Under the pieces are notes generated by a model that made no database searches, was not told where the DNA came from, and was given only the letters and a program-made list of their open reading frames with translations. 64,000 nucleotides of DNA from Tubulanus polymorphus (Eukaryota; Animalia; Nemertea): contig NC_134025.1 in assembly GCF_964204645.1 (NCBI RefSeq), forward strand, positions 19,939,101-20,003,100, given 5' to 3'. Both the position numbers and the translations under genes were made by a program. Positions 1-64,000 of this stretch are shown here, piece after piece; position 1 is the stretch's first letter, and each line of letters starts with the position of its first letter.

Positions 1-134
1 TACACAAGGATTCAAATTGTACAGGTTCAAGATATGCTGTCAACAATTGATTGGATGATATGCCTACAGAATTACTTAAAATTTTCTATTTCATTTCCAT
101 TTTAGAACTAGACGTTTCATTAGCTGCTTAAACA

Positions 135-3100
135 ATGCCAGTGTCAACAGCTGAGTCATCATTTTTGGAAATCCGACAGCGATACTGTGAAGCCACTCAG
201 AATGGAAAGTTATCTTACACACATTATGCTAAAGGTTTGATCATTGGTGATGTAGGTGTCGGAAAATCTTGCGTGAAAAATACACTTATTGGTAAACCGA
301 ATGTTGAAAATGAAGAAACGCATACATTTGGAGTAAAGCAGGATACAATTGAGACGTATTCCTCATCAAAAGTCTTTCACAAAGTTGAAGAATCTGAGCG
401 TGAATTTTCTAAAGCTGCCGTATTTTTAGCTTTGTACAGTAAAGACTTCATTTTGGCAAAAGTCAATTCGGTAACGTCGGAACATTTGAAGAAAGGTTGT
501 CAACTTATGGTATCATTCTTGTGTTTGTTAATGTGTGTTTGTATACATTGTGGAAGTACACTTAATTTCAGTTTTCTTTATGTATTCAGTATCATTGGAG
601 CGTTGTCCATGAATTATATTTTAGATGTACCCTACAATTTGTACAGGTATGGTCAACATCTCTCTATTGTTTGCGTTGTTATGAAAGTCATTTGTGCAGA
701 AGATTCAGTTTGGAGTCACAGTAATATTGCTACCAATTACAGTAGCGCAAAACTAGGTCTCTTAATTGTAGTAGTTGGAATTGTCATCAGTAGTTTGGTT
801 ATCGGTATTAGTCACAAGTTCTCCTTCACATCAGGGATATGTTGCTATTTTATGGCAACAGGAGAATCAGGAATCTCAGTCAGCATATTCAATGATTATA
901 ATACTATTGCTAAACTTATTATATGTATCGTGATACATTTTTTGATAGATTATTACGCGACATATTTTAGGCAATATTTCAAAAGCATTGAGGCCAGACA
1001 TGGCATCATACCGTGTTTATTATTTGCCATTTTCTACAAGTCAATGCCGGTGTTCGTAACGTGTGCCAGCTTCTCCATATTATTTTCATTAGGGATGAAA
1101 TTGAGTGAATATTTGTGTGATAGACAAAAATATATTGTTAAACGAGATATTGGACATACTATCCAATATGTAATTGGTGTTGAAATTGGGATTATTCTCA
1201 GTCAGTATCTTGATTGGCAACTGCATTTTTCGGTATTTCACACATTGCTTTCCTTGGCAATTTACATTTTTGTTGAATTATTTTTTTGCTATCAAAATCA
1301 ATTTGATGCCTACCCTGCAGATGTAGTAGAGCACCTACAAGAATGTGGCTACCAGTCATGGCCTGTTAAGGTGTGCTTGTTGGATTTTGCTGGTAGCGAG
1401 TTATTTCGGGATGCCAATCATTTGTTCATGGGAGAAAGTGCAATATATATGATTGTTTTATCTCTCCATGAAGCTATACTACAGCCGGAATACCAACTAA
1501 ATAGGGTAATTTACTGGTTGAATGTTGTTTTTGCCCACACTCATTACAGAAATGCTAAAGTCATTCTCATCGGTACGAACAAAAGTAGATGTATGAATGA
1601 TGAAATCAAAGGATTTGGTCTATATCTGAAGGATAATTTGAAAAAGAACTTCAAAGATTGTTTAGCTTTAAATAAAAACAGAAATTTTGTTCCATTGTTC
1701 GCGATTGATAATATGGAATCAATGGATACCGTTGGTTCTGACTTAGATGAACTTCATAATGCCATATGGAAGTATGCTAACGATAGAGAGTTTACACACC
1801 AAAATGTTCCTGTTCAGTGGGTCAAATTTAATGATTTGATCATTCACAAACGTAATTTGCGCAGAACTGGTGAAAGTGAGCATTTAGATTGCTGTATTAC
1901 CGATGTGAATGTGCTTTATCAAGAGGTTAAAGAATTATGTATTGTAAATGATGAGCCAGAATTTTATAAACTGTTAGAATTTTACATTAGTTGTGGTGAA
2001 ATATTTTATCGTATGTGTGATCCTCGGCTGTATAAATATGTAATCTTAGATCCACAGATTATCATGGATTGCACGGCCTGTCTTGCCGGTCAATACCTAA
2101 ACTCTATTCCGACGCATCTTCAATTGCACTGGGATCGTTTGGAACAAAAGGGCATCGCTTCACGTGAAATGTTGATGCATTTACTAAAAGGCATTCCCGG
2201 ACTGAGGGAGTACTATATCGCAATACTGCAGGGTTTAGATTTACTTGTACCAATCGAGAGTCAGATCGGTTTGTTGTTTAGCGAGTCCGACACCTATATC
2301 GTACCATTCAGACTACCTTTGCGTCTGACATCGTCGCGCTATAATGATGACGTCGAACAATTTTATTTCGATTTCGGACCATTCAATCCGCAAATGATCT
2401 TTCTGAATCTCATTGCCAAGTGCTTTCAGATGTCGAAGTTTGTTGCTGAACAAAAAGAACTGCGAGTATCTGACCATGACTGGACGAACAATTTGTACAA
2501 GGATTGTGTCGAGTTCTATTATGGTGACTTGTTTCATTATAAAATCGAAAATTTACAAAACTCCATCGATCGAAATATCTTTCTTGTCAGCGTTTGGAAA
2601 ATCGACCACTCTGCATCGATATTTTCATTGTATGGACTTCTCAATGGAATTATTCTGTCATTGTGCAAAAGGGATTTCCCATTCGTGTCGTATAGTGTTG
2701 GGGTGCTGTGCGATTGTGGTGACTATCACAAAGTTGAGCATCGCAATGATTATGGTCCGGTGAAATACATGCCAATTTCATTTCGTACTACCATCGAATA
2801 TAAGTGCAAGGGTGAAACCAAGATATATACCGAAAAAGATGCTCCACACGAGGTAGGTCAACTGATAGTTTAGTAAAGAAACGTGATTATAACATCAGTT
2901 GCAACAACAGGAATTATCTGGGTTTTTTACTCTACAATCTATTAATTCTACCATCCGGATATCCTGCTGGCTTCATAGTGTGTGGTATATTTATTTGGAT
3001 AATTATGAGATGAGTATTCAAATTAGATGTTTCGAATAGCCAGCTGTAGCCTGAGCCTTTGCCTGTACAAATAGAATGAATGCTATGGTTTTCAGATGAA

Positions 3101-4352
3101 AGGTTTTTTCGTCTTGCAACTAAGTATATAGAAAGCAAAATATCAGACCAAAGAAACCGATCAGCTAACCTGATTGGGTTAGTTATAGATATAGGCAGGT
3201 GTTCACATACTACTCCCAGGATTTTAGATAAAAAATTGTATTTCAAGATATTTCTGAAGTATTTGTTCTTGCCAGCAGCGGTGTTACTTTAAAACGCGAT
3301 TGCACATATAAATTGTTAACCACAGCACCACGGTTATTCCACCAGATGGTGTGGGGAGCACTCAGTCTTATGTTATCAAAATTAGTTTATTTTCAATGAA
3401 CTTTGAACTGAATTTTTAGGGAAGAATTTTCAAATGCGTAGATCCTCACAGGACCCACCAAATATACAATAAATTAATTCTTCTACTTCTATAACGCTAA
3501 TCCTTGAATATCGGTAAAGTTTTCATTTATTTATTGATCTATGTAAGAAAAAGTTCATTCAGTTCTCACTGAAATATAGAAGAAATCGAACGCGAAAGAC
3601 CGAGGTACTACTAACAAACTTGGTGTAAGTGGAATCCTCGGTTCCCACAGGATGTCATAGGCTCCCCATAATATTGAAGCAGAATGTGTTATGTCACATA
3701 TAACCTACAAATTGCTTCATTTCATGAAAAGCAAATACTATAGGCCGACTGTAGTGCCCCTGTGTTTGGGCTCTTGTTTGTTCTATCTCATGATCTATTG
3801 ATTCAATTAAATTGTGTTGAATTGAATTCATTAATTCAAATTATTGCAATTATTTAATTCCAGGAACTTATCAGAGACCAGGAAATCTCTACACATGGCA
3901 TCCATAGTACAGCATTCATCTCTTGTAGCTCAGAGGACCGCGCTTGGGCTCAGTGTGAACTATTGCCTGCTTTGCAGAACATCCTGATACCTCGCAAAGA
4001 AATCCAGTTCAGTACAACACACAGTCAGATAATGATCAGCTTTACGCCAAACGAAAGATCGCGTCTAAGTCAAGAAGCAAAAAATCAACAATTTATTGTC
4101 TCAAGTACCTGTATTCTAGTCATTATTAGTCAAAACTACTTGCAAAATTGCATTAATGAATTGCATTTCGCCATCAAGCATTGTATCCAACACAAGAAAC
4201 GATTGATACCAATTCTATTGGACCAGTGTGAATGCCCGCATGAGTTGAGAATTGTCAAACCGCTTCAGTATCCTTCGGATGAAGGTCAGAATGTTTTTAC
4301 CGAATTTTATTTGCCTCTGATAAAATTGTTCAAAGATATGTCTAAGTGTTAG
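135..4352 (+). CDS. Roco-family GTPase with a multi-pass TM insertion inside Roc, a COR region and a C-terminal TIR domain; join(135..2852,3864..4352), ~1068 aa
   Basis: In-frame TAA at 129-131 precedes ATG 135. P-loop GDVGVGKS (246-269), G2-like THTFGV, G3 LDFAGS (DFAG 1383-1394), G4-like IGTNKS. COR-like motifs VPVQWVKF, YVILDPQIIMD, YIVPFRLP. Phase-0 donor GAG|GTAGGT at 2853 and acceptor TTCCAG|GAA at 3864 join in frame to AFISCSSEDRAWAQCELLPALQ...IISQNYLQNCINELHFA...RLIPILLDQCECP, which is TIR-like. Confidence 0.85.
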
Positions 4353-5068: not shown

Positions 5069-5792
5069 TGTAGTGGAAGACAGTACAGGGTTCTGTTTTA
5101 CTGGGCAGGGACAGTCGCTCAAAGGTTTAAGTTAACTGTCAGATGAATACCTGGTAATGATGAAGTTCTAATTATCGATGACACATGCCGATATAGCTAC
5201 GATCCTAATACATCCACTTTTCGGGATCTATTAAGATCTTTATCGCTTTTTATTGCTACTAAAACAACAGAATTGCTTTATGATGACAGCTATCGGAGAT
5301 AAAGCTAGCCAGCAGCCACAGCAAGTCATATTAAATTGCGTGGGTTTTGACAATGGCCAAGTCAGCCAATCACTGACCGATGTCCAACAGATAAATTTTT
5401 ATTTGCGGTTTATACAAGCTGGTATAGATGTCTTCCATGATTACAATGCTGTTCAACAACAACAACAACAACAACAACAGCTAAAAACTCAACTTTAACT
5501 GACAATGCCTGAATTAGGACCAATATATATACTTCTGCTGAAAGAATATTCCAGAAATTGCCATCATATTCTAGATTGTATCTGGAAAGTTCCCTAAGAT
5601 TGTAAATAATTCCTAAACATTTCAGATAATTCTTCCCATTTCTGGTATTGTCCTAGATGCTTCTTCAATTCTAAAAACTGTAAACAACTAACAATATATC
5701 ACACTATTCTTGACCTAGTGCTACTCTGAGATAGTAACAATCACAAATCAATAATTCTCCAAACCTACACTACACTAAACATGAATATTACA
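5069..5792 (-). mobile_element. Probable solo LTR
   Basis: Termini TGTAGT...ATTACA form an imperfect inverted repeat. Read on the minus strand it has TTCTAGA/TCCAGAA-type short repeats, then a TATATAT box (~5524-5531), then AATAAA (~5248-5253). It contains the (CAA)n tract at ~5454-5478. No target-site duplication found. Confidence 0.4.
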
Positions 5793-7822: not shown

Positions 7823-9872
7823 ATGGCAGCAATTGAAAATCTCCAGGCGCAGGTATAGTTTGCATATTTCCGTTAAGATTAGACTTATATGAATGTTATA
7901 CTATGGTCTATTTCCATTTAAAAACTGTTGTGTATATTTTCACGCGGGACTGATTAAACCATATTAGAAATCAGTAAATCCATAGCCTATAGGCCCTTTA
8001 TAACTATAGGACATATTATGATGATGTATAAAAAGGGTTAATTAGGGCCATGAATAGAAGTATTTGGCAGAAATGAATACCCTATTCTATTTCTATAGGT
8101 CCTACAAAACGTAACGATCATCTACCAATGATAACCCTCATATTATCGGGTTGTCGAGATTTTTTCATGGGCCGCTTAGGCTATCTGAAATAGTGAAATA
8201 GTTGAATTGATGCTCGTAACAATTCAAACCGATGAGTACCATGGATACTTGTAGATAGCGCCTCATTGAAACGACTGTCTGACAATACCGTAATATATCT
8301 AATATATAATTTTCAGGTGGATCAATTTTCAGAAGAAGAAATTGCAGGTAAGGCAACATCAAAGAAAACCCTGTTTCTCGGGCCTGACAGACCCGGATTT
8401 CGTCATTTCAAATAACTATAATGAAATTGCCTACCGACCTTATTTCGGATGAAATAAATTTTTTCAAAATTAAATTTGTGGCTGACCGACTACAAAGCTC
8501 TCCATCGTGATCTCGGCACAGATCGACACCATAAAATTATTTTTGACATCGGATTTAACAATTTGATTCTGGAAATGGTAGGCCTACAGCTGTGCTCAGA
8601 CATTGATGGCAACCTTGGAATGTACAATTCCAGGAATACCGTATAAGATAATTGTTAAAGGCCTATTCAAGATTTTGATGTTTTTCTTTTCATGAACAGT
8701 TTCCAAGTGTGTTCAAAATAATAGTTTTTTTATAGTTTATTGTACAAAAAAACCTGAACTTCCTTTTATTATTGTGGTCTTCTAATTGCTAATCATATTT
8801 TTTAACTGGAAATTTGGTCTTGCATAAAGACCGACCGACCGACCGACCGACCGACCGACCGACCGACCGACCGACCGACCGACCGACCGACCGACCGACC
8901 GACCGACCGACCGACCGACCGACCGACCGACCGACCGACCGACCGACCGACCGACCGACCGACCGACCGACCGACCGACCGACCGACCGACCGACCGACC
9001 GACCGACCGACCGACCGACCGACCGACCGACCGACCGAAATTGTAGTGTATGTGTAGGTTATACATAGGTATATCTGTGCTTTTCAGAATTTAAAGAGGC
9101 CTTTGCGATTTTTGACAAAGATAGCTCCGGATTCATTACGACAAAAGAGCTCGGTACAGTTATGAGAACGTTGGGCCAAAATCCAACAGAAGGTCAACTC
9201 GCATCAATGATTAGAGACATTGATGTGGATGGTAAGACAAAAGCTGGAAAGAAGGAATTTATGAAAATTTTCTCTTAAGAATAATACCTGAAAGTGGGTT
9301 ACAGGGAAACGTCCCTTCTCTCCAAAATTTCACCTGGGGAAGTTGAGGGATTGAAATTAGCAATTCGCATTACTTAAGTAGGAATTCGAAAATTATCAAA
9401 AATTATGAAGCGAGGCAACTTTATATTTTAAGCCCACTGAAAGCAATTTTCCTTAGTTGTTGTCTGCATGAATTCTTCCGTATACCAACATCGCATCCTC
9501 TCGTTTAATCGTGTAGGGAATGGAACTCTGGATTTCCAAGAATTTCTTGGTTTTATGGCGAGAAAAATGAACGACGGCACAGAAACCATAGATGACATCA
9601 TAGAATCGTTCCGCGCGTTTGATAAGGAAGGTAACGGGTTCGTAAGCGCTGAAGCATTGGAAAATTTCCTCATGAACATGGGCGAAAAACTGGACGAAGA
9701 CGAAATGGGGTGTATGCTGAAAGAAGCGGGAGTAGATCAAGATGGACAAATTAATTACGAAGGTAGGCATCGTTATATTCCAAATTGAATTCAGTATCGT
9801 GTATAGCACGGTAAGTAATTCTTTTCGTGGATTCTTTTATTTTCAGAGTTCGTTAGACTTATGATGTCATGA
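7823..9872 (+). CDS. Calmodulin-like EF-hand protein, 158 aa; join(7823..7852,8317..8347,9088..9231,9517..9762,9847..9872)
   Basis: Spliced translation [86 protein letters not shown]...[12 protein letters not shown]...[19 protein letters not shown]. All introns are GT-AG with compatible phases, and several sit at the usual calmodulin positions. Exon 1 is the least certain. Confidence 0.9.
8350..8781. mobile_element. Non-autonomous DNA-transposon-like repeat; a second copy starts at ~25850
   Basis: AAGGCAACATCAAAGAAAACCCTGTTTCTCGG...TTTCGTCATTTCAAAT...AATTGCCTACCGA matches AAGGCCACACCGGAAGAAAACCTTGTTTCTCGG...TTTCGTCATTTCAAAT...AATTGCCTACCGA at 25850-25950. TGTGGTCTT at ~8773-8781 is a candidate inverted right end. 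Confidence 0.5.
8829..9037. repeat. (GACC)n tetranucleotide microsatellite in intron 2 of the calmodulin-like gene
   Basis: About 52 perfect GACC units; explains the spurious DRPT/GRSV ORFs. Confidence 0.97.
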
Positions 9873-10526: not shown

Positions 10527-11606
10527 TTATTCATCTGGTTGTTCGCCCCTTTCGTCTAAATTAAAGTGGCTCTTTTGGATCATTTGAATCCACCCGATGA
10601 CCTTGTCGTCATCATCTTGTTTATCTTTGAGCGTTTCGGGAAGAATACGTTCATGTTTTCGGTTGTATTTTTGGTTCGTTGAAGTCTTTAGTTTATTAAC
10701 ACCGTTATTATCCGATATCACCGGCAATCGATCAGCTGAACCGGTCGTATCCTGGCGATCCATCAAAAAAGTAACAACCTTTTCCAACTTTGGTGCGTCG
10801 ACGTCGTCGCTAATTTCACGGAAAAACTGTTCAATGCCGTTTCCCTGGTCCATTTGCGGGTCATTATTTTCTGGGTTTTCGTCGCTTAGATTTTGCTGCT
10901 CATCAACTCTTGTTGCAAGTGCTGGCAGAGGTTTGTACGTTTTGATGCGATGCCGTTTCAATGTTCTACGCAAGGCCAGTCGACGAAGTTGGGGCAAGTA
11001 AGATTTATCTATATAAGATTCACCTACATCTGTCGAATAGACGCCATGTTTATGATGGCGAGCATTCTTGCTACAGTGGAAGAACGCATCTTTCTTAGCG
11101 GCAGCAATTTCTTTCTGGCAGCCGAATTGCAGTGACGTCACTTGTTTGCAGTCTTTTCGAGGTCGGCGAATAGAGAGAATTGTTTCGGGATCAGCTAAAT
11201 TTGATTTTGGTCGTGTTACTTTAATCGGGGATCTTTCCATTCCAATCTGCTGTAGATCTTTGATATCTAGACTTATACTGGTTCGGTCAGCTTTAAACAT
11301 GGGGATACACTTACCCATCGTAAAGATTGGAGCGTCTTTTGTTCCCTGTTTAAAAGTTGACAACGCTTGAAACACAGTCTTTACACGTTTGATTGCCTGT
11401 TTACGCTTTTCTCCGCCAGTATGTTGTTTTTCATCGTTCAATCTATACGAGATTTGACGTTCCTCTAGGATCTCGTTGGTAAGTCGAGCGTGAACGTGGC
11501 ACCGCAATGTTTCTATTTCGCGTAAATTCGATTTTAGCTGATTGTTCAGAATTTCGTTGGCCGACTTAGTAAAACTTGAAAACGATCCTAGTTTACGTCG
11601 TCCCAT
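10527..11606 (-). CDS. Uncharacterised 359-aa intronless protein with N-terminal coiled-coil motif; distant paralogue of 13685..14998
   Basis: Long ORF in AT-rich DNA with Lys/Arg-rich, disordered composition. Residues 17-56 align without gaps to residues 17-56 of the 437-aa ORF (14/40 identical). Confidence 0.75.
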   Translation of the reverse strand: MGRRKLGSFSSFTKSANEILNNQLKSNLREIETLRCHVHARLTNEILEERQISYRLNDEKQHTGGEKRKQAIKRVKTVFQALSTFKQGTKDAPIFTMGKCIPMFKADRTSISLDIKDLQQIGMERSPIKVTRPKSNLADPETILSIRRPRKDCKQVTSLQFGCQKEIAAAKKDAFFHCSKNARHHKHGVYSTDVGESYIDKSYLPQLRRLALRRTLKRHRIKTYKPLPALATRVDEQQNLSDENPENNDPQMDQGNGIEQFFREISDDVDAPKLEKVVTFLMDRQDTTGSADRLPVISDNNGVNKLKTSTNQKYNRKHERILPETLKDKQDDDDKVIGWIQMIQKSHFNLDERGEQPDE

Positions 11607-12375: not shown

Positions 12376-13684
12376 CTGTTCACTCGCAGGTGAAATATTT
12401 AATCTGTAGAATCGTCCAATAAAAGGTCCACTAATTACCCTGGGTACAGCGGCATTTATCGCAATATGGATAGTGGTGTGTATAGAATGATATGGGTTCG
12501 ATATTCACAGGGATTGTTTTACATTCCGACAAGTGCGCATAGGGCACTTTCTTCGAAGGATTATTTTTGCAGTAATTGTCCCCAAAAGATCATCTCAGTT
12601 GATGAGACTCGGTCGGTCATTTTCGTTCCATATTTAGCGAAGCGATGGAGACGATTCGGCAATTTATCATTGGAATTACTGCACTAATCCCGCACGTTAC
12701 GAAGCACGAATCATACCTATATTTAATGAAGCATATCCTACATAGTTGATTGCCTATCATCGTAAGCTATTGGCTAAGATCAGTGCCGAGGACATTGGCT
12801 CCTAGGCGTATTACTAAATGACACATCGTCTAGCCTGATTATAGAGAGCCATCGATGACGATACGAGGATACATTGAAATGTCATTTTCTGATAGCGTCA
12901 TCAACACTCTATCTGCGATAAATCGAAAAGCGCTGTATACGTTTTCCGTTTGGTGACGCCATCGCTTTCATTCAGTCTCTGAAATGCCCGTGCATTCGTA
13001 ATTCAGTAGCGAAAGTAACGCATATCTTCGACATGCAAAGCACTCAAAAAGCTACCGGTCGCGAACAACTAACATCCATTAAACTACACAGTGATACGGC
13101 ATCGATACGGTTTACTCTGTTAAGCCATTGCAACAAGACTCGCCTCTCCGGTCGTTTTATGGCAATTTTCATTTCCCATGATTTATTAGTCTCAAGTATG
13201 CCAACTCTTTCACGATTTCTCATTATGTTTTGTTATAATATTTCTCGTCAGCCCGTTGGTTTTCTTCAAATAGCACCAAAGGCTTTTCGGCCCTCGAAGC
13301 TATTGTTCTCATGGGAATTGGATACATTGTTGGCAAGGACGACATGCTTTACGTTGGAACTCATGGGAACCTCTTCTTTGTCTTTGAGGGTATAAAATTA
13401 AAATCGATCCATTACAACAAAATCTGAACATTATGTTCGGTAATAAATATTCTGCGAGGTGTAGCTTGTTAATGAATTCAGCAAATAATTGCCGCTTATT
13501 GCATAAAAAGCCAGCGCAGTTAGCGACATTTTGCATTATTAAACGTAATTCAGCGAAGATAACGGCAATGTAACACTTATGTACCGGGTAATACTGGATT
13601 TATATGATCGATGACAACCTGTGAAAAAACTCCGCTTTTTGTCCGTGGATTTATATAAAGATATTTACATGAACATACGTCAGG

Positions 13685-14998
13685 ATGATGGGTGAGGATA
13701 TATTTGGTGCTTTATTAAAAGCTCGGGACAAAAATGAACTGCTGAAGTATCGTTTGACAGAGGAGATAAGATTTCTCGATAGACAAAAGAAACAATCAAA
13801 ACATATGTTGACAAATGATATATTCGACGAAAGGAAAGAAGCTTATCGTCTGCAAAGAGAGGTGACCGATATTGAATTACGCGACCAGGAAAAGAAACTA
13901 GCGGCCGAGGCGAAAAAACGAAAGGGCTGGGAAGCATTACGCCGGAGAAAAACATTTTTAGTCGCATTAGCTGGACTTGCAGAGAAAAAAGAATCGAAAG
14001 CTGGAATAAAGGGTACCCAAATGGCGTTACTGAGTCCAGAAAAGGAATATGTTCAGAGAAATCGAACAAGGTCGGCCAATGAGTGGAAGGATAAACTACT
14101 GCCCGAATTGGAACTGAATCGTAGTAAGTCTTTAGTTGTACTGTCGAGCCATTGGGTTGGAGACCCGAGAGCTATTGACTCTGTAAGGCGCGAGCGAAAA
14201 ACCCCAGAAGAAATGGGTACGTACACTCGTTTTTTACAAGGGTTTCGTCACGCGGCCAGGCGATCGATTCGTACGGCTTTCTGCAGTCGACAAAGATGCC
14301 GCGGTGCATACGAGGGTGACCCCGGCTTCACTGACGTCAGTCACATGACCTTGCGTAAAGTCATGAACAAAGCAAAACATATCAAACTAAATGAGGAGAT
14401 CCAACCGGAAGCTCTACAAAATGTCGATATACCCACCCCAGCTGAAGGTAAAACAGCTGGTGGTGTAATAAAATCGTTGCTTACAGACACTCCTTTCGAA
14501 GAGAAACAAGGGCTGCCAAAATCCCGAGAGAATACCACATTCTCAAACGATTCTGGCATCGAAGCAGACGCTTCGAGTGTCGGTGGACTTTCTCGATCAC
14601 ACACGTTACCACAAATATTAGAAGAATCAGAAACCTCCGGAAAAGATAACGAACTTGATAATAAATCAAGTTTACCCTCTCGACCTTTATCTACATCATC
14701 AGCAATGGGTGCAGCTGGGCTCTACTCGCAACTAAGTAAAAGCAAACCAAAAGCGAATCATACGAACAAAACTGGTTTCGGTGTCAATTTAAAGCCTATC
14801 AACTACGATAATATTACAAGTCCGATTGCTGAGTTACGCCGGATGAGTACGAACTTTTTGAACCGGGAAGACGTTATAACTGTCGATGTAAACAAATCCG
14901 TCAGAATTCATAAAACCGTTAATTTCAACGCTGACGCAGTTGAACATAAGAAACATTTGGCTCGTCGAAGGATCATTTTACCCGATATGATATTCTAA
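13685..14998 (+). CDS. Uncharacterised 437-aa intronless protein with N-terminal coiled coil and Ser-rich disordered tail; distant paralogue of 10527..11606
   Basis: 1.3-kb ORF; heptad-like N-terminus; shares the NE(L/I)L..L....R...LTN(D/E)I..ER...YRL motif with the divergently oriented 359-aa ORF. Confidence 0.8.
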   Translation: MMGEDIFGALLKARDKNELLKYRLTEEIRFLDRQKKQSKHMLTNDIFDERKEAYRLQREVTDIELRDQEKKLAAEAKKRKGWEALRRRKTFLVALAGLAEKKESKAGIKGTQMALLSPEKEYVQRNRTRSANEWKDKLLPELELNRSKSLVVLSSHWVGDPRAIDSVRRERKTPEEMGTYTRFLQGFRHAARRSIRTAFCSRQRCRGAYEGDPGFTDVSHMTLRKVMNKAKHIKLNEEIQPEALQNVDIPTPAEGKTAGGVIKSLLTDTPFEEKQGLPKSRENTTFSNDSGIEADASSVGGLSRSHTLPQILEESETSGKDNELDNKSSLPSRPLSTSSAMGAAGLYSQLSKSKPKANHTNKTGFGVNLKPINYDNITSPIAELRRMSTNFLNREDVITVDVNKSVRIHKTVNFNADAVEHKKHLARRRIILPDMIF

Positions 14999-19437: not shown

Positions 19438-22400
19438 ATGAACTGTGGAACGGAAAGTGGTTTATCGATGTTCTTTTTCATATTAGTAAGTAACGTAGAT
19501 TTTCATTATATTCGTTGAATTATGTACCTTCTATTGAACGCCATGAATGCAATTCATAAAAATTTCCATTACCTATTCACCTCGGATGTATTTTGAAAAC
19601 AGTTTCTTTTTGTAGAATTATCAAATTTACAATTCAAATTCACTCAACCCCTCCCCAAACGAAAGCGATGCTGCCAGGTTAATCATAGTTGATTTATTAC
19701 AGTGGAACCTTGTTTATCGAATCTTGTGGGCTTAAGTGAAATTGTCGTATTAAACGGGTTTCGTATTATCCATAGCTTGATTTATATGAATATCTGGGCC
19801 ATGCGGGAAATCATCGTACTCGACGGGTTTCGTCATAAACGAAGTCGTATCAACGAGGTTCAACGGTATCAATTAAGTATAAATCTATCTATCCCTTTTC
19901 GTGGAATTTAGAAATCAGAAAAATACTAACTAGCATCGTTATCTTTATTTCAGGTCGCTATTTTCTCATCTCCGTCATCTGTGATCGCAGGTAGGAAACT
20001 TTTCAATATTCGCACACTTAAAATTATCGTTTAGCGAAACATGAAAACAACAACAGTATGAGCATTTCGTGTTCTTGTTGTGCTGTTTTATCGGGTCAGT
20101 AATGCAATTCTGGTCTATTACTTCCGAATCCGAAGAAAACAGAAAATTGTAATTATCCATTTGCCTGATTGATCGTTGCTTTTATAAGGCGTAGATTTTT
20201 AAGAGTTCAGTAAACACGGTTAGTCTTGGCTTTGGTGCGTTGAAATGTCGGAATTTCCTCGAGTATACGGAAAGCAAACAACAGAAAAGTATCAACGTCG
20301 TTCTGCATTCTAAGATATCATATTTGGATTTACTTTTTGCTATTACAGTTCTACAAAGGGTTGTTGCTCTAGTATGTGGGATTTCCGTGTTGGGCTGTGA
20401 TAAAAAGCTTAAAAATTTCCGCATTCATTGAATAATTTCTAAAACATCAGAAGAAACATTTATTCTTGCATAAATAATAACGATAGCGCAATGATTTTTT
20501 AAACATTTTTTCATCCAAGCAAAAATACGGCACGGGTCTGAGTGGGCACGTCATTCGATATATCTATATATGTACATCAGTTTTTTTTGCTACAAATCAT
20601 TTAATCAACCGAGCTATGCTGCTTGGCCTTCTTGGAATCACTTGACACATTCTCTCACATATCAATGTGAATGATCTATCAAAAACGGGTATTGCTGTAA
20701 AAAGCTCTTGCGAACACTTTTCAGAGTGCAATTCGAACTCCTCTAGAGCGTACTACGACCGTTTACGATGATATATTATTTAGTAGAACGTCGTCATCGG
20801 CGGTAGTGCGATTTCAAAGTGGGAATCAAATCTAATTTGAAACTCAATTTGACTCCGTTTCATATATACTTAGCAGGTTATTGCTTCTGCTCGAACCGTG
20901 GCAAAATAATTCCATATGCTTTTTTCACGGTATCAAGGTCGCGGATATTTTCACAACTTTTCTGTGTTAACGAAAACACCGCATTTTTATTCAAGGAATT
21001 CTAATTGTGTTGATTTTGTTTTAAGTATGCTGATGCGGTAATCTTCGTGGCGATTAAGTTTATACTAGCAATTTATACTAGCAATTTAACTCCGGCATGA
21101 ATAGTTCGTTAAGTCACCGACCGAAGAAGAATTCGTTTCTATCCGACTTTTAAATGCTTACGATAACTACAGAAATATTTACGTTATCCCGTCTGTTAAT
21201 TAATGCATCATAACCACGCTCGTAAAAACGACATTGTCTAAAAATATAGGATAATTGAAATATTTCCGTATCTAATACACCTGCCTATTCGTTCTGAATT
21301 CATGTGTGAATAATTATTCATCAGATACGAGTGAAATCTAAGTGCGATGTACAATAAATCTTCGCCCTGGCCATCTATATGATATGTAGGCCTACAACTG
21401 ATTTTATCGATACCAAATTGTTGAAATAATACATAGATCCTGAAATCATACTTCGATTGATGACTGAATTGCAATGTTTCATGGTAACAGTGAGTTGGAA
21501 TTTTATCGGCAACGCTTAATTGTACTTACGTAGCCTTATTCTGGAGTTAGTGCTAGCATTCTTCAAATTTTAGTTTCATTCTGAAAATTAGCAGTGGTTG
21601 AAAATGTTAGAATGAAAAGCGTATCCTACCGGTGGCAAAGGAAATTGAATACTCGGATTTGTTAACTTGAACAAAGACATTAAACAGATCGAAGGACAGA
21701 GAATTGACCAGATAATTGCAATTCTTGAAAAAAAGTGTCAACGATGACAAAAACTGCACGTTTTACTCGTCCATTCGAATCCGCAATATGTATGTATATA
21801 CTCGGTAGATTGGATAAGAAATATATTCGAGAGTTTATCATTCACCCGAATCGAATTGATGTGGTATAGGCTATAGGCGAATTTTTGAATAGAAGAAAAT
21901 TGATAGTATTTTTGCTTTGTAAAAATCTGGGTCCAATGGATCAAGTGAAAATTATTTAGATAAAGACGTATACGTATTGTACGAGTTACCATAAGCAATG
22001 TCTATATGGTGACTATGGTAACTCGTACTATATGATTATAAAATATAATTTGTATAAGTAAGTGGTTTACCGAATAGCCTATGTTTATGTTTTTGCAGGC
22101 GATAGTGACCACGGATGTAAAGTCGGTTTGGCTGACATTGTATTCATGTTAGACGATTCATCGAGCATCTGGCCAAACAATTTCACGCTGCAGAAGAATT
22201 TCGTAAACCAAATGATAAATTCATTTGATATCGCTCCCGACGCTACACATGTTGCAGTCGTCACGTTCAGTACGCGCGCACGTCTTCAATTCAGACTCAA
22301 TGAAATGATGGAGAAAGACAAACTGAGGGAGGCCGTTTTCAGAATCCGACAACGAGGTGGCGACACTAACACCGGAGACGCGCTTAATTTAGCGAGGACC

Positions 22401-24980
22401 TACGCCTTCAGCCGTTCTCAGGGTGGACGACCAGGGAAAGTGCCTCAAATTGGAATCGTGATCACCGACGGCAAATCGCAAGTAATGCGCCAAACCACCA
22501 GAGAAGCACGGTTAGCGAAAGAGCAGGGAATTATTCTGTTCGCAGTTGGTATCGGAGAACACGTCAGTCAAAAAGAGTTACGATCAATCGCTTCAGGTGA
22601 CGATTTTATATTTGAAAATAATGACTACGCCACTCTGTCAAAAATAGAGACACAACTTCAACAAAAAGCGTGCGAAAGTAAGTATTGAAAAAGAACTGCG
22701 AATGATCTTGCAAAATCAAGTCTCTTATCGATATTCATATTGCTTTCAGTTCCAATACCAACAGAGGTCAAAGTAGGAAAGAACTGCCGGAACAAGGAAC
22801 TTGACCTTATATTCGCTGTAGACGTAGCCAAACCGATCTATAAGATCGACTACTTCAAGACACTTGCCTTTGTACAAAGTGTCATGTATTCTATGGATCT
22901 TGGCGACGACAAGGGCAAAGTTAGTGTAATAGCGTTCGGGAATCACGTAGAACCTGCTTATCAACTCGGTGAACACAATTCTTATTCCAAAAACTCCAAA
23001 TCATTGTTCAACATTAAGCAGATGGATGGACCGTCAGATTTTGCCAGTGTCCTACAATATGCCAGATCTAGAGGTTTCAATGAGCGATATGGCGCGCGCA
23101 AAAGTGCGGCCCAGGTTCTTGTACTGGTAACCGATGGCAAGTCAGCAGACTTTGCAGAAACTGTCCGACAAGCGGAAAGAACAAAAACGGCCCGCATAAG
23201 AATATTTGTGGTGGGAATCGGCCCCGATGTAAACACTGGAGAACTGGAAGCTATAGCATCTATGCCGGCTAGATACCATGTGTATAAGGTTGATAACGTT
23301 GATCAGCTGGCAAAAGTCAAAACTTCAATATCCAGGAAAATATGTAGTGTATCAGGTCCAGTACAACTCGAAGGTAGGTCGACCGAGTATTCTAGTCGAA
23401 CAATCTTTAGACTGTCACTTAAGATGTGCTGCATTGAAATTTCTATGAATATATATTGCAGCTTGTGGTCGAAGAAAGGGAGCTGACATAGCTTTTGTAA
23501 TGAACACCGAGAATGCTATTGCTAAAGACGTTGTCAAAACGAGAGCTTTCATGAAGAACATCACTACCAGTTTCAACATGGGCAAAAACAAAATCAAAGT
23601 GGCCGCGCTACCAACAAAATGTAACTCAGTGCCTGGTTTCAGACTCAACGAAGGCGGCGAAGACAAGAAAGTTGCGCTAGAAAAGATCGGAGCCGATACT
23701 AACAAGGACGCTCTTACTGCATTGTTGACCGACGTTCGCACAGACGCATTCGAAGAGAAAAACGGTGCTCGAAAGGGTGTGAAGAAAATTGCCATCGTCG
23801 TTACAGACAATAAACCAGAAAATCCACGTAAAACTCTATTAGAAGCGATGAAAACGAAGATGTCAGATGTGGAAATATTCGTGATAGGGGTCGGCAAGGA
23901 GGTCGATTCGAAGCTGCTGAAAAATATAGCATCCACGCCGACTGAACGCCATGTAGCATTTGTACCCAATTACTCTACATTACACGAAACTAAAGAAATG
24001 TTAGTCGACAACGTATGCGAAGGTAAGATCGATATGTTTTCTTGAAAAAAATGACTCCATTTTAGGTATCTTAGGAATCTTTACATCCATTCTTAATGGG
24101 AATTCGGTACGCTTAAAATCACTTTGTGGGATATAAGGGGAATATAAATATGTAACTCGAACTCGAACCAATTATTAACTCCCAACTTGAAACAAACTAG
24201 ATGCTAGTTGTATAGACTGATCCCAGCAACAAAGTTGTGAGTTACCATTTACATTTCGACTCGTCGAGATCAAATTCACAATGTTCTTACTTTTTGGGTG
24301 CATTTCTCGAAAGGCTATGAGGTCATTTTAGTTGGAAATGGTGGATATGATAATTATCGGAAGATTTTTGGCATTTTTTTTTGCTTTGACGTCGAAGAAA
24401 GATATCCCGAAGAAAAATATGGTATTTTGAACACATATCAGAAAGTGACAACCTGAAGAAGGTTGTCAATAAATCAATATGAAAAAGTGCAATTTCAGCA
24501 TTACGTAAACCATGATTTGAAATGAATTTGAAGATTTGTCGGAGTACTCGAAAACCTCACTGAGTTTTTTTGCAAAATAAGTCATTCACTTGCGCAGTCG
24601 TCGTACCTGTAAACAGCAATGAAATACGGCGAGATAGAATGTATGTCGATTCATACATAAACCCAATACATGTTGCAAATTTAAGAATGACATCAACTGT
24701 GCCTCGCCTTGTGTAATTAGCAGTTCCAAAAGTATAGTGAGGATTATCATACAATTTTGAGAACAATCATCCGTTTTTTCGTTGGTTTCTGGTTAGACCT
24801 ACGAGCAATCATCCCAAAATCTTGAGATGATTGCTCGTAGGCTAGACATAGTATATAGCCGACACCGTGGTCTTCACGTACGTTACATCAAGATCGCAAA
24901 GTCCGTCATGAAGCGAGGCTTCTTTGATTGATACTATGTGATTATTGATTTCTTTTACAGAACTGGAAAATGGGTCTTAA
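19438..24980 (+). CDS. Secreted three-VWA-domain protein (matrilin/collagen-VI-like VWA modules), ~622 aa; join(19438..19485,19954..19990,22099..22677,22750..23373,23462..24022,24961..24980)
   Basis: Signal peptide MNCGTESGLSMFFFILVAIFSSPSSVIA is built from two small exons. Three phase-1 exons each encode a C...DIVFxxD...IVITDG...FAVGIG...C VWA module. MIDAS DDSSS is intact only in VWA1. All junctions are GT-AG and in phase. Confidence 0.88.
19700..19866. mobile_element. Tc1/pogo-like MITE
   Basis: TA|CAGTGGAACCTTGTT ... CAACGAGGTTCAACGG|TA: imperfect TIRs flanked by TA. Confidence 0.55.
24798..24841. repeat. Short perfect hairpin, probably a miniature TIR element
   Basis: CCTACGAGCAATCATC / GATGATTGCTCGTAGG form a 16-bp inverted repeat with a 12-nt spacer. 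Confidence 0.6.
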
Positions 24981-30230: not shown

Positions 30231-30946
30231 GGCAGAACTATTTTTCTATCATTACAAGGTTCCAGGTAGTGGGAACGTCTCAAAAAATACAAACCTCGGA
30301 ACAAAGTTTAGATTGCCAATATTGCTAGAATTTAATTCCCAACTGATGACATACGTCGCCTGAAACCGAATAAGTTTCAGAACGCTAGGTTTTTGAATCG
30401 GAGTTTAACCTGTCATATTTGAATTTTAAGTGGAGATGATAATGATTGTAGCTCCCTAAAAACCGTCCTAAAATACTAAGATATTTTGATGGAAAGCTAG
30501 ATACGTATCTAACGTACGATGTGCCCACTACAGCGTTATGCGCGACTTTTGCCAGTTTTACAGTTTATCTTTAATTTCATTACTATGGCTTTTAAGCTAT
30601 TTAACGCTTGGCCAGACTGATATGCGTACGTTCCCTGCTCTGCAATTTCGTTCACCGTTTAACTAATAGCCGTCCGAAAATTGCATTCATATATATTTTA
30701 AACGATTCACCATACGCTGGCGATCTATTCTGTTATAATGTGAAAAATCGTTATTTCAAAAATTTGGCAAGCGAATGGGTAAACGAATGACGTCCTTTCA
30801 AAATCAGCAAATCAATGCACAAACGTTAAACATAATGCCGTAGTATCGAGTATCGAGTACATAAGTCTTTCCAGGTATCATTTGTTAAATTGCATCTATT
30901 AGCTCTGCTAACAAGACTATAGTATATTCCAGTTCGCACCATATCG

Positions 30947-31993
30947 ATGTTTAATCTACCGGTACGTGATTCATCAAATCGCCGTTACACATTTTCCTTA
31001 GCGAAAAAAAACACGAACACAACGATGAATTCATCCCAGTGCCCGATAGACGAGATACAAGTATTCAAACACTACGTGATAGTATATGGCGTCGGTGCAA
31101 TCTGCGTCTTGGGTATATGTTTGAACATCTTCGGGATTTTCGTTTTTCGAAAAATGACGGAGAGTGGACAAGCTATCTATCTCCTCACACTACTATCAAT
31201 AGCCGACACAGTTTATCTGCTAAACATTTTTCTCGATAGTCCGGTTCGACGTCTCATTTACCAAATAATCCACGGTGACAAATTATTTCGTAGGAAAGAC
31301 TACGGTGTATTTCCGATCTGGAACTGGTTCCGCATTGCTGCTTACAAGTCGACTGTTACAATTCGCAATTGGGTTGTCCTTCTGTCAGCAGTTGTTCGAT
31401 GTTTGCACATTTTGTTTCCGCTATGGTCCCGTCGAAACATTGATCGGAAATTTGTGAATTTATGTACGGCGATAATAGCGATCGTGTCGGCGGTAATATA
31501 TATACCTCGTTATTTCGGCGGTCGCGTTGTCCCGTTTAAGTGTCTGGGATCTTCAATGTCGAGTCCAACTTATCCAAAATTTGTGAAAGGAAAAGCAATG
31601 GATTTGAGCTCAACATGGATTTATTTGATAGTAACAGTAAATGCACCTATGATTATTCTTATGCTCGCAAACACGATTTTGCTGTGGTCCGTCAGTCGTT
31701 CGGTGAAAAATAGGAAATCGATGACGTCATCTAATACCGAAATAAATGTTAACACAAGAGCCACTCAACTTGTGATCATAGCTACTCTTATATATATAGT
31801 TTGCGAGTCACCAACAATCATTTCAAGAATATTTAATTATTTCATTAAATACGAATCCACAATTACGATGAGGAAAATGTTTGTCCTCTTAGACAACCTG
31901 ACTCCGATCGACTCAGCTATCAATTTTGTTATCTATATTATTGCCAGTAAAATATTCAGAAAAACCGCGTATAAAATACTGTTTGCCAAATAA
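30947..31993 (+). CDS. Intronless class-A GPCR, FMRFamide/peptide-receptor-like (chemoreceptor-type), copy A
   Basis: Seven hydrophobic segments; GICLN (TM1), LSIAD (TM2), VRCLHILFPL in place of DRY, IPRYF, CESP (TM6), DSAINFVIY (TM7), helix 8 FRK. The true start may be the ATG at 31025 (MNSSQC). Confidence 0.9.
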   Translation: MFNLPVRDSSNRRYTFSLAKKNTNTTMNSSQCPIDEIQVFKHYVIVYGVGAICVLGICLNIFGIFVFRKMTESGQAIYLLTLLSIADTVYLLNIFLDSPVRRLIYQIIHGDKLFRRKDYGVFPIWNWFRIAAYKSTVTIRNWVVLLSAVVRCLHILFPLWSRRNIDRKFVNLCTAIIAIVSAVIYIPRYFGGRVVPFKCLGSSMSSPTYPKFVKGKAMDLSSTWIYLIVTVNAPMIILMLANTILLWSVSRSVKNRKSMTSSNTEINVNTRATQLVIIATLIYIVCESPTIISRIFNYFIKYESTITMRKMFVLLDNLTPIDSAINFVIYIIASKIFRKTAYKILFAK

Positions 31994-35096: not shown

Positions 35097-36109
35097 CTGA
35101 AAATAGTTGTTTGGGCTCCTATAACGCCTCTTTTATTATAAGTTGAATTACGGATTTGATGGACTTGAACTAATTGGGGAGATGGAAAAACTGAAGAAAA
35201 AAAGTTCTAACATTAAATTCATAACTAATTAAATGATCGTAAAGGGGAATTTTCCAAGAAAATAGATACGAAATTCCTTTATTTAGGGGGTCGTTTGGAT
35301 AATGATACCCGAATATTGTCTATTTATTGCATACACACATAACTAACGCCGCAATTTTTGCAGATCACGCTATTGAACGAACCCAACAAATATATCTTTT
35401 AGAACACCATTGTCCACTACGATTTTTTGGGTGTGTCATGTCAAGATGATGTGGCAATGGACAAAATAACAAATGTGTTCTTTTTCTATTTCCATATCTA
35501 TGTTTAAAAATGTGGGGGTACCGGAAAGAAAATAAAAATAATTCGAAAATAGAAATCGAGAAAGTTCGTCGGCAGATCCGTAATCCAACTTATAACAAAA
35601 ATGCCCCTTGGACATTAGTGAGAAGTAATGCATGTACTCCCTTACTTAATAAGATACATTTCAAGAATCAGCCATTCCATTCACAATTGGTATTTTGCAA
35701 ACACACGTTATTGGAAACCTTCAATGTTGTTATATTTCAATTTCAATTGAAATCGATGCAACTTTTCTACAAAGCGAATCAATTATCAACGAAAAATATA
35801 TCAAACGCCGAGTTAAATATCAATCCAAGATTTTTGGCGGGTCGTGTGAAAATATATGAAAACCCAGTTCGAAGCGTATTCGTTCTTTTATTTTTTGACA
35901 CGGAGTACGCATCGCACCATCTAGCGGGATAGCTGGTAGTTCCCGTTGGAGAGGGCACCATGGATATGACTGAGATTCTTATTGGTTTGTCATACAGTGA
36001 AATAACGCAAAACACATCTTGAGTGTTTAATTTCAGCTTTTGAGAAGAGAAAGAAATTGATGAGTCTGATAGGAAATATGGTGTTGCATCGAAAATGAAT
36101 TATATGAGC

Positions 36110-38730: not shown

Positions 38731-39422
38731 TCATACAAGGTTCCAGGTAGTGGGACCGTCTCAAAAAAATTCAAACCTCGGAACAAAGTTTAGATTGCCA
38801 ATATTGCTTGAATTTAATTCCCAACTGATGACTTACGTTGCCTGAAACCGAATACGTCTCCGAACGCTACGTTGTTTGAATCGGACTTTAACCTGTCATA
38901 TTTGAATTTTAAGTGTAGATGATAATGATTGTAGCTCCCTAAAAAACATTCTAAAAGACTAAAATATTTTGATGGAAGACTAGATACGTATCTAATGCAC
39001 GATGTGCCTACTACAGCGTTATGCGCGACTTTTGCCAGTTTTACAGTTTGTCTTTAATTTCATTACTATGGCTTTTAAGCTATTTAACGCTTGGCTAGAC
39101 TGATATGCGTACGTTTCCTGCTCTGCAATTTCGTTCACCGTTTAACTAATAGCCGTCCGAAAATTGCATTCATATATATTTTAAACGATTCACCATACGC
39201 TGGCGATCTATTCTGTTATAATGTGAAAAATCGTTATTTCAAAAATTTGGCAAACGAATGGGTAAACGAATGACGTCCTTTCAAAATCAGCAAATCAATG
39301 CTCAAACGTTAAACATAATGCCCGAGTATCGAGTACATACGTCTTTCCAGGTATTATTTGTTAAATTGCATCTATTAGCTCTGCTAACAAGACTATAGTA
39401 TATTCCAGTTCGCACCATATCG

Positions 39423-40469
39423 ATGTTTAATCTACCGGTACGTGATTCATCAAATCGCCGTTATACATTTTCCTTAGCGAAAAAAACCACGAACACAACG
39501 ATGAATTCATCCCAGTGCCCGATAGACGAAATACAAGTATTCAAACACTACGTGATAGTATATGGCGTCGGTGCAATCTGCGTCTTGGGTATATGTTTGA
39601 ACATATTCGGGATTTTCGTTTTTCGAAAAATGACGGAGAGTGGACAGGCTATCTATCTCCTCACACTACTATCAATAGCCGACACAGTTTATCTTCTAAA
39701 CATTTTCCTCGATAGTCCGGTTCGACGTCTCATTTACCAAATAATCCACGGGGACAAATTATTTCGTAGGAAAGACTACGGTGTATTTCCGATCTGGAAC
39801 TGGTTCCGCATTGCTGCTTACAAGTCGACTGTTACAATTCGCAATTGGGTTGTCCTTCTGTCGGCAGTTGTTCGATGTTTACACGTTTTGTTTCCGCTAT
39901 GGTCACGTCGAAACATTGATCGGAAATTTGTGAATTTATGTACGGCGATAATAGCGATCGTGTCGGCGGTAATATATATACCTCGTTATTTCGGCGGTCG
40001 CGTTGTTCCGTTTAAGTGTCTGGGATCTTCAATGTCGAGTCCAACTTATCCAAAATTTGTGAAAGGAAAAGCAATGGATTTGAGCTCAACCTGGATTTAT
40101 TTGATAGTAACAGTAAATGCACCTATGACTATTCTCATGCTCGCAAACACGATTTTGCTGTGGTCCGTCAGTCGTTCGGTGAAAAATAGGAAATCCATGA
40201 CGTCATCTAATACCGAAATAAATGTTAACACAAGAGCCACTCAACTTGTGATCATAGCTACTCTTATTTATATAGTTTGCGAGTCGCCAACAATCATTTC
40301 AAGAATATTTAATCATTTCGTTAAATACGAATCCACTATTACGATGAGGAAAATGTTTGTCCTCTTAGACAACCTGACTCCGATCGACTCAGCTATCAAT
40401 TTTGTTATCTATATTATTGCCAGTAAAATATTCAGAAAAACCGCGTATAAAATACTGTTTGCCAAATAA
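39423..40469 (+). CDS. Intronless class-A GPCR, FMRFamide/peptide-receptor-like, copy B
   Basis: 348 aa; differs from copy A at 5 residues (N/T, I/V, I/T, Y/H, I/V). Confidence 0.9.
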   Translation: MFNLPVRDSSNRRYTFSLAKKTTNTTMNSSQCPIDEIQVFKHYVIVYGVGAICVLGICLNIFGIFVFRKMTESGQAIYLLTLLSIADTVYLLNIFLDSPVRRLIYQIIHGDKLFRRKDYGVFPIWNWFRIAAYKSTVTIRNWVVLLSAVVRCLHVLFPLWSRRNIDRKFVNLCTAIIAIVSAVIYIPRYFGGRVVPFKCLGSSMSSPTYPKFVKGKAMDLSSTWIYLIVTVNAPMTILMLANTILLWSVSRSVKNRKSMTSSNTEINVNTRATQLVIIATLIYIVCESPTIISRIFNHFVKYESTITMRKMFVLLDNLTPIDSAINFVIYIIASKIFRKTAYKILFAK

Positions 40470-50458: not shown

Positions 50459-51241
50459 TGTGTTCTAGGGAGTACCTTTTTGTGATGGTCCTTCTAACTC
50501 TATTTTGAAGTTATTTTGAAATCATTATGAAATAATTTACTAGAGTAGAATCGAAGATGTTGCCCTTACAATATTGCAATTCAATTTAATTTTATTGATG
50601 GTACCCAATACTTTTGGTGATTACAGATCCAAGCCACACAAAGACCGTCATTCCAAGCCACCGTATGAAAACACAATCCAAGCCAATCGAAAAATGCTAA
50701 CTAAAGAAGGAGATTGTATCTCGACCGAAGACATAGCATGACTCGAATTCAATTTTCGTAATTCATTAAATAGGTAACAAATTCAATTTCACTTTTGAAA
50801 TAAGATTACCCCCAATTTTAAGATTTATCTAAATTTCATAAATACTCTAACTCTAACTCAGCTTAACATCACTATAGGCGTTCTGATTAAACATATATGT
50901 ATAAATGTCTCGCACGCTAGACCGGGTTGAATCGGTTCAGCGAATAGGACGTCTCACACTCCACGGCTCCACGGTTTTATTTCGTGTGACCTCAGTTTCT
51001 AACCTATACGAAGGGACCTTTTTCACACTTGCGTAGATGATTTGCGTTGATACGGATTACGAATTCGAATTATTCATTGTTTGAATACAGGTTTTCATCT
51101 AGTGTATCTAAATAAGTATACTTATTGATATATAGGTCAGCAGACGTGTCCCAATACGTAACACTTGACGAGACACCGTGCAGTCAGCTGAGTCGTGTAA
51201 AGTGACAAGTATACGATTATCATTTAGCCAGAGCAGATATA

Positions 51242-63559: not shown

Positions 63560-64000
63560 GCGAATTACTACCATAAAAAGCAAGGCTGCCACAAAAACTT
63601 AATATTGGGTTATCTCAATTGATACATGATTGAAGAAATTTCCAAAATCTGCGGTGGAGTTATCAACAACTAAGGATGAATAATTTTTAGTAGAACTACC
63701 AAATACCATATAAGCGCTTTTCACAGCATTAAAAAGCAAGTCATATTCAATAGCGAAATCATCACAGGTTTCATACATTGCTTTAGCTGCGTGTTTACCA
63801 GGAGCAAGTAAGGTGACATCATCTATATAGCCACTGGCTCCAACATATTGGTTTCCGATGTAGCAGCCAATGCCAATCTTTTTACGGTCACAAAGCAAAA
63901 TGTCAATGTATATATTAAATAGTATAGGGGATAAGACTCCGCCTTGTTTTACAACATTGCTAGCATCGAATAAACTAGAATGACATCCGTTCCATGATAT
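63560..64000 (-). mobile_element. Non-LTR retrotransposon RT fragment (RTE-X/L2-like), cut by the window end
   Basis: KQGGVLSPILFNIYIDILL...GIGCYIGNQYVGASGYIDDVTLLAP...FNAVKS; the YADD motif is altered to YIDD. Confidence 0.85.

Follow-up and report, generated by a model that had tools for sequence, protein, structure and literature searches.

A Roco (Roc-COR-TIR) gene of Tubulanus polymorphus with a predicted ten-helix membrane bundle inside its G-domain

The stretch of Tubulanus polymorphus DNA analysed here (64,000 nucleotides (nt), contig NC_134025.1, positions 19,939,101 to 20,003,100; hereafter the window) is eukaryotic DNA with introns, and a single open reading frame near its start (135-2873, + strand, 912 codons) raises the question of whether a GTPase domain can be split by a multi-pass membrane domain and what such a protein would do. 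An initial annotation, made from the sequence alone, had placed about 9-10 hydrophobic helices between switch I and the G3 motif of a GTPase. By domain and fold the protein is a Roco protein (predicted product, 906 + 162 = 1068 amino acids (aa), Roc-COR-TIR) of a new variant, predicted to be integral to the membrane; the GTPase host of the initial annotation thus stands, with the refinement that it is a Roco and not a small GTPase. The spliced architecture is well supported, and we regard it, with very little doubt, as real and family-wide. The features of the gene are as follows.

104..137 (+): splice acceptor, 5' untranslated region and start (acceptor AG at 104-105, in-frame TAA at 129-131, ATG at 135-137), from the sequence and the X1 contig
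135..362 (+): N-terminal half of Roc, aa 1-76 (alpha0, beta1, G1, alpha1, switch I, beta2), from motifs and the model
363..476 (+): cytosolic linker joining beta2 to membrane helix 1, aa 77-114, from the model and the alignment
477..1310 (+): predicted ten-helix membrane bundle, aa 115-392, from models, charge bias and homology to the family insert
Helices 1-5 of the bundle, as modelled: aa 115-142, 145-163, 169-195, 202-228 and 231-241 (short)
Helices 6-10 of the bundle, as modelled: aa 255-281, 288-303, 305-331, 337-358 and 367-392
1311..1808 (+): return linker and C-terminal half of Roc, aa 393-558 (beta3, G3, G4, G5 region), from Pfam Roc, motifs and the model
1809..2852 (+): COR (COR-A and COR-B), aa 559-906, from Pfam and structural alignment
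2853..3863 (+): intron of 1011 bases, GT..AG, phase 0, from the run X1 joint and a frame check
3864..4352 (+): TIR effector exon, 162 aa (aa 907-1068), from Pfam TIR_2 (E 4.6e-11)

The hydrophobic segments listed in the initial annotation are present in the translation; the mean hydropathy of the insert was +0.90 (vs -0.22 for the remaining protein), and its six windows at a Kyte-Doolittle value of 1.6 were reached by 0 of 2,000 draws from the rest of the protein. Such a segment might be an artefact, i.e., an unspliced intron, a chance read-through of AT-rich DNA or a mis-assembly. T-rich DNA does inflate hydrophobicity, since 39 of 2,000 random-codon peptides with the base make-up of the insert also reached six windows; such a window count can arise from T-rich DNA alone, and therefore the weight rests on the family evidence (see below). 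However, the probability of a stop-free frame of 267 codons was 3.5e-9 (the other two + frames have 16 and 17 stops), homologous inserts occur in curated gene models of five phyla, and contigs of two samples are unbroken across the segment (run X1, 104-2853; run X2, 1-3407), so that the artefact is effectively refuted. Note that runs X1-X4 belong to one study, possibly the source of the window itself, that the run types, including that of X1, are not on record, and that contigs drop rare variants. Of the three outcomes that the initial annotation named as refuting, none was encountered: the insert does not look soluble, an even topology was obtained (see below), and removal of the segment by splicing was not observed in the X1 contig.

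Where the X1 contig starts to match at 104 (the AG acceptor), 27 letters differ from the upstream DNA of the window. At the other end of the exon, a 57-letter X1 record joins 2852 to 3864 (the short side has 27 letters, below the 31-letter bar), and this joint, in phase 0, keeps the reading frame into TIR. The Roc-COR core is within one large exon (nt 106-2852), and since an in-frame TAA is located six bases 5' of the ATG in this first coding exon, the splice form read cannot accommodate a repeat domain N-terminal to Roc. As a separate observation, short interspersed repeats, at which each of the four runs shows many loose ends, were seen at about 3360-3600 (in the intron) and at 5180-5300 (3' of the TIR stop).

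Does the split Roc still form a G-domain? G1 (P-loop GDVGVGKS, aa 38-45, nt 246-269, including Lys44/Ser45), the G2 region (THTFGV, aa 62-67, nt 318-335; Thr64 at nt 324-326) and G3 (DFAG, aa 417-420, nt 1383-1394) were found where they had been annotated, and the proposed separation of about 350 aa was confirmed (353 aa from Thr64 to Asp417). Pfam Roc matched aa 411-482 above the cut-off (E 2.9e-8) and a weak Rab14 match was obtained at aa 26-71 (E 0.06); automated annotation misses the architecture because Pfam gives two broken Roc pieces and nothing between them. The full-length AlphaFold2 model (49 sequences) had a predicted local distance difference test score (pLDDT) of 81 and a predicted template modelling score (pTM) of 0.76. 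All 162 residues of Rab6 aligned to the model range 31-548 (Z 18.1, root-mean-square deviation (rmsd) 2.5 A), as did 313 of 323 residues of Methanosarcina barkeri Roco2 (4wnr_A) to the model (Z 27.6, rmsd 3.6), and the 35 Foldseek matches of the model at E 0.001 were headed by LRRK1, LRRK2 and bacterial Roco chains, among them that of C. tepidum. Both Roc halves are thus predicted to fold into one complete G-domain, as the initial annotation had asked of AlphaFold, and this domain is predicted to lie against the membrane. In the model the insert exits after the strand 67-74 (beta2) and re-enters before the strand 411-418 (beta3), i.e., its modelled position is the beta2-beta3 interswitch hairpin, with linkers of about 40 and 20 aa; the earlier idea of an attachment at the switch region accordingly holds for a site within the G-domain but not for switch I itself. 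At linker position aa 81, the Trp conserved in the family (see below) is Phe in the query protein (P0001).

The G4 motif of the query is GTNKS (nt 1572-1586), with Ser in place of the aspartate, and the G5 region is FAIDN (nt 1698-1712). The G4 Asp is present in 24 of 42 family members; it is absent across the whole clade of the query, whose three nearest relatives have Ala as the last residue of G4. In the G5 region, an acidic residue that is retained at aa 525 (nt 1707-1709) in 49 of 49 aligned sequences may be a stand-in for the Asp. Since variation in G4-G5 is known in Roc (PMC6337361), the missing Asp leaves the Roco membership intact. It could be argued that the family is as described here and that the query copy is a degenerate switch (a pseudo-GTPase, or one with relaxed base specificity) serving as a membrane-tethered TIR adaptor or decoy, in keeping with its G4, its long branch (1.25 in the quick tree described below) and its drifted bundle motifs. 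Lys44/Ser45, Thr64 and DFAG are nevertheless intact, and the open frame continues across the splice into TIR; the residue at aa 525 and the known G4-G5 variation also speak against degeneration, which we consider improbable.

The insert comprised nine long helices and one short helix in the full-length model, and ten helices when modelled alone (pLDDT 75, pTM 0.68). The 9-10 helices of the initial annotation were thus recovered in the models, but not from the single sequence, in which eight windows at a threshold of at least 1.2 were found. The content of Lys plus Arg per residue in 42 relatives was 0.077-0.219 in six of six predicted inner segments and 0.038-0.073 in five of five predicted outer loops, an alternation with a chance of 1 in 462, although the windows were placed after the profile was seen. 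Because this bias alternates over the eleven segments as required, ten crossings are predicted with both ends of the insert in the cytosol; the polytopic bundle within the G-domain and the even number of crossings, both anticipated in the initial annotation, therefore agree with the models and with the charge bias. Within the family, helices 4, 6 and 8 each have a conserved G-x3-G motif at their inner end, and a conserved G-x-R-x-G-x2-C-x3-PP stretch traverses helix 5; Arg171, Trp361 and acidic positions at aa 184 (helix 3) and aa 381 (helix 10) are conserved as well. Column-level conservation in the insert is approximate because two alignments agreed on only 48% of its residue pairs. N-glycosylation sequons across the family were not sorted by membrane side, and profile self-comparison of the bundle gave no internal repeat (best probability, 14%).

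Is the insert a property of one gene or of a family? Using aa 31-552, a phmmer search of 1.84 billion representatives yielded 109 matches at E 0.001 (24 at 1e-10), which with the query formed a set of 110; 81 proteins with both Roc halves were considered, and 29 without one half were left out. Between the halves, 43 of the 81 have 313-395 aa of positive mean hydropathy, and 38 have 57-217 aa, of negative hydropathy in 36. Thirty of the 109 relatives were looked up; species names were available for 20, of which the following 19 are insert-bearing.

Tubulanus 2, Owenia 1, Branchiostoma 3, Ptychodera 5, Glandiceps 3
Asterias, Patiria, Amphiura and Anneissia, 5 together

We take these genera to be nemertean, annelid, cephalochordate, hemichordate and echinoderm; all of the named insert-bearing products are annotated as uncharacterized or unnamed. 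With leave-one-out profiles, 42 of 48 aligned inserts scored at least 20 bits against the family insert profile, and the query insert scored 33 bits (26.5 bits with its whole clade left out), compared with at most -2 for shuffles and with -9 (a G-protein-coupled receptor (GPCR)) and -6 for two unrelated membrane proteins of the window. The inserts of P0057, P0062, P0064 and P0076 scored below zero and may be separate acquisitions or cases of extreme divergence. All 42 P-loop members, which were chosen partly by motif, keep G1, the G2 Thr and G3 (DxxG) with a G2-G3 distance of 335-417 aa, so that the Roc switch looks to be under selection. The mean identity was 46% and 35% for the Roc halves, 26-27% for COR, 17% for the linker and 17% for the insert, which is the most variable folded part of the protein. 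Several divergent paralogues occur per species (5 in Ptychodera and 3 in Glandiceps among those looked up), and together with the variable insert they are, by analogy, as in immune receptor families.

In a quick tree, 40 of the 43 long-insert rows formed one group (support of 91 in the Shimodaira-Hasegawa-like approximate likelihood ratio test), P0057 and P0064 were grouped with short-insert rows, and P0028 was placed apart; the query clustered with two Tubulanus proteins and one other (support, 99). It was also seen that P0057, P0063, P0064 and P0075 form a group (support, 98) with interswitch inserts of 345, 203, 395 and 57 aa, and that the long inserts of P0057 and P0064 are hydrophobic, yet without score on the family profile; this group could represent a second gain of membrane helices or a stepwise loss.

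What, then, are the input and output ends of these proteins? Roc begins within the first 74 aa in 42 of the 43 long-insert proteins (some records may be without upstream exons), and no LRR, ANK or TPR was among the families listed for 53 members. COR-A is present in 41 of 53 aligned members; in the query, Pfam COR-A at aa 595-724 was below the cut-off (E 0.0025), and 281 of 299 residues of C. tepidum COR (3dpt_B) aligned to the model (Z 15.2, rmsd 3.5). Among 43 relatives scanned for C-terminal domains, Death was found in 15, TIR in 2 and caspase in 1 (P0017 of Branchiostoma floridae, whose insert-bearing Roc-COR core carries a complete caspase domain, E 9.5e-57, and which would be the most convenient member for a functional assay); two further relatives gave weak TIR matches, and the Death, TIR and caspase outputs are mixed across the Roc tree. 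The TIR of the query shares 35% identity with the C-terminal TIR of P0002, the best relative, and the Glu is kept in both. This Glu (Glu1005, nt 4158-4160) is within a CxxE pattern at the likely catalytic position, which we presume from the motif, and the activity is a prediction. Invertebrate TIRs with this Glu often make cyclic ADP-ribose in a Glu-dependent manner (bioRxiv 2026.04.20.719644).

Relatives of the bundle itself were sought by sequence and by structure. Pfam gave no family for the query insert and no membrane family common to two or more of the 53 members, and there was no match to the bundle in NCBIfam or in PDB sequences. Foldseek against PDB gave none at E 0.001 (best, 0.66) and the viral structures none (best, 0.42); with VIA-align over 48,161 chains none reached Z 8, the best being a soluble protein (Z 6.7, rmsd 6.3, 151 aligned residues). 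Chains that we presume to be of the RND type made up 11 of the top 50 VIA-align rows (Z 3.8-5.2, rmsd 4.3-8.4), within the background range. The word-based protein search gave no match for aa 25-560, one for the family alignment at E 1e-20, and no stand-alone shorter relative of the P0006 insert; in the ESM Atlas there was no usable match for the query insert and only Roc-COR-Death clusters for P0006. These blank searches do not show that the bundle is a new fold.

Roco proteins usually consist of an N-terminal repeat domain and Roc-COR (PMC8195603, PMC11378527). For the present protein, we infer a role as a receptor in immunity or cell death, embedded in the membrane, whose bundle replaces the LRR/ankyrin sensor; to this function we give an even chance. 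Somewhat less probable, in our estimate, is the wider reading of the family as an unrecognized animal receptor class in at least five marine phyla, with receptor, G protein and effector in one chain; equally tentative is the proposal that, within this class, a ten-helix sensor of a new family is wired into an LRRK2-type interswitch and drives a swappable TIR, Death or caspase. The bundle is regarded as the input because the repeats are missing, because the effector is swapped among relatives, and because the bundle is the fastest-changing folded part. It would detect a cue located within the membrane or on its far side, which could be a small ligand or a lipid, a protein from a pathogen, a toxin protein, or damage to the membrane, and the change would pass via the beta2-beta3 hairpin, which runs from switch I to G3/switch II, or via clustering in the membrane, so as to shift the nucleotide state of Roc. 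There is a precedent for the former route in Arf, in which the interswitch shifts by two residues and thereby connects the nucleotide site with the opposite side of the protein (PMC3012027). The nucleotide shift would then alter the COR-based monomer-dimer balance, as in bacterial Roco, in which GTP drives the dimer to the monomer with a large conformational change (monomer-dimer cycle: PMC6337361, PMC11052575), and the C-terminal TIRs, brought together, would cleave nicotinamide adenine dinucleotide (NAD+) via the kept Glu or recruit an adaptor; where relatives carry a caspase or Death domain, this would be triggered by the same core. Roco has been described as a switch of conflict systems, with variable C-terminal effectors in bacterial members (PMC8195603).

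Several observations weigh against the receptor reading. Helix 5 has only 8-11 residues in the models and is followed by an extended stretch, the pLDDT of the insert ranges in blocks from 47 to 87 across models, and the query is an atypical copy, both in its G4 and branch length and in being without several family-conserved bundle residues (e.g., Gly324, Arg325 and Pro241-Pro242). No effector was detected at E 0.001 in 25 of the 43 relatives scanned, many of them partial or single-exon calls, and the TIR glutamate is no guarantee of activity (bioRxiv 2026.04.20.719644). The outer loops are short (mean, 5-22 aa in 42 relatives), so that there is no evident ligand-binding ectodomain. Finally, because the inserts are soluble in 36 of 38 short-insert proteins, the interswitch loop is a tolerant site, possibly with loose coupling; the linker varies as much as the bundle does, which also suggests loose coupling.

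The last two points, unrelated soluble inserts in the same loop and variable linkers, suit a passive anchor or scaffold, in which the bundle would fix the Roco on one membrane and raise its local concentration while the cue acts elsewhere (a partner of Roc or COR, or the GTP level). Most of the conserved bundle residues are glycines, suited to packing; the four of 48 inserts below zero on the family profile suggest that different hydrophobic sequences may serve; and LRRK2 is activated by membrane recruitment (PMC6337361). Two helices would suffice for an anchor, yet the insert stays at 313-395 aa across five phyla and keeps the G-x3-G-x-G-x-R-x-G-x2-C-x3-PP hairpin and the acidic aa 184 and 381, and the protein would be left without a sensor; we thus consider an anchor unlikely, if well worth keeping in view. 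The initial annotation also suggested a GTP-gated pore, and the bundle could itself be the output, as a pore or transporter like Tmn or FeoB, TIR or Death then being a second output or helping assembly. Several traits seen in channels and carriers would fit this, namely ten helices with a short half-helix and an extended strand, packing rich in glycine, and a small number of buried charges, and some relatives are without a detected effector domain. Tmn has two helices in its P-loop domain, assembles as a decamer and, when triggered by phage, exports Mg2+ (PMC13001434). However, the mean identity of 17% and the lost charges of the query (Lys at 184, Glu at 325) are unlike a fixed transport chemistry, the bundle showed no internal repeat, and at least 18 of 43 relatives already have a dedicated effector in the same chain; a pore seems rather improbable to us, and the receptor is the likelier of the two because TIR, Death or caspase is fused.

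How does this Roco compare with known systems? It shares the Roc-COR tandem, the alpha0 helix and G1-G3 with LRRK1/2, DAPK1, MFHAS1 and C. tepidum Roco, and the C-terminal TIR or Death with invertebrate Roco proteins such as those of sea anemones and Aplysia (PMC5094078, PMC9334734). Roc domains with inserts have been described (PMC11378527); unlike in other Roco proteins, the insert here is a predicted multi-pass membrane domain, the GTPase is predicted to be integral to the membrane, and N-terminal LRR/ANK and kinase are missing. The available excerpts of the sea anemone and Aplysia accounts of Roc-COR-TIR/Death (PMC5094078, PMC9334734) mention no membrane insert, and the word 'transmembrane' is absent from the 2019 Roco review (PMC6337361). 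In the literature covered, outside of which most subscription journals fall, we found no Roco described as having a membrane domain within Roc, and five family accessions were absent from 12 of 13 supplementary files of PMC8195603. Note that Roc, COR and TM are among the domain labels in Figure 3A of bioRxiv 2026.04.20.719644, and a family member may have been tested there.

The nearest analogy in design is the YobI-family ATPase Tmn. In YobI/Tmn and the KAP NTPases as well, helices are inside a P-loop domain whose Walker A and B meet in the cytosol, with a role in defence (Tmn: PMC13001434); those proteins are ATPases with two inserted helices, whereas here a Ras-like G-domain has about ten predicted helices and is followed by COR and by a swapped Death, TIR or caspase. 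Membership in YobI/Tmn or KAP is ruled out by the Ras-like G-domain with DxxG and by COR, so that these are analogues only. With the NLR/STAND proteins and Toll-like receptors (TLRs), the family has in common a nucleotide switch, an exchangeable death-fold, TIR or caspase output, fast-diverging paralogues and a core in a large exon, and with TLRs also membrane-bound TIR signalling; it differs in that the variable part is a membrane bundle inside the switch. NLR/STAND or TLR membership was rejected, since Pfam found no NACHT/NB-ARC or LRR in P0001 and an in-frame stop precedes the ATG. In FeoB, a G-domain is tied to a polytopic membrane unit, but the membrane part comes after the G-domain. GPCR and G-alpha are separate chains, and the helical insert of G-alpha is soluble and located before switch I, unlike the Roco insert, which lies after G2.

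The other features of the window are as follows.

9468-9788 (+): calmodulin-like EF-hand exon (Pfam)
10527-11606 (-) and 13673-14998 (+): long open reading frames of 359 and 441 aa, for neither of which Pfam gave a match at E 0.001
22062-24045 (+): von Willebrand A exons, two confirmed by Pfam
30923-31993 and 39399-40469 (+): single-exon seven-transmembrane receptor open reading frames (Pfam Srw), 97.9% identical and about 8.5 kb apart
51206-56094 (+): sodium:neurotransmitter symporter (SLC6) exons (Pfam)
63599-64000 (-): reverse transcriptase fragment (Pfam RVT_1), likely a remnant of a non-LTR retroelement

Similar open reading frames are located at 35450 and 43784 and, with the Srw pair, suggest that a tandem duplication occurred recently or that two alleles were assembled.

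How Roco GTPases such as LRRK2 switch on at membranes, and what invertebrates sense infection with beyond TLRs and NLRs, are open questions. The family described here offers predicted integral-membrane Roco proteins with a simple output (NAD+ cleavage by TIR, or caspase) that would be readable in cells or bacteria. If the reading is true, these would be naturally membrane-fixed Roco proteins, in which the coupling of the input to the nucleotide would be directly testable, and the design of membrane helices inside a P-loop domain would be extended from bacterial defence ATPases to animal Ras-like GTPases.

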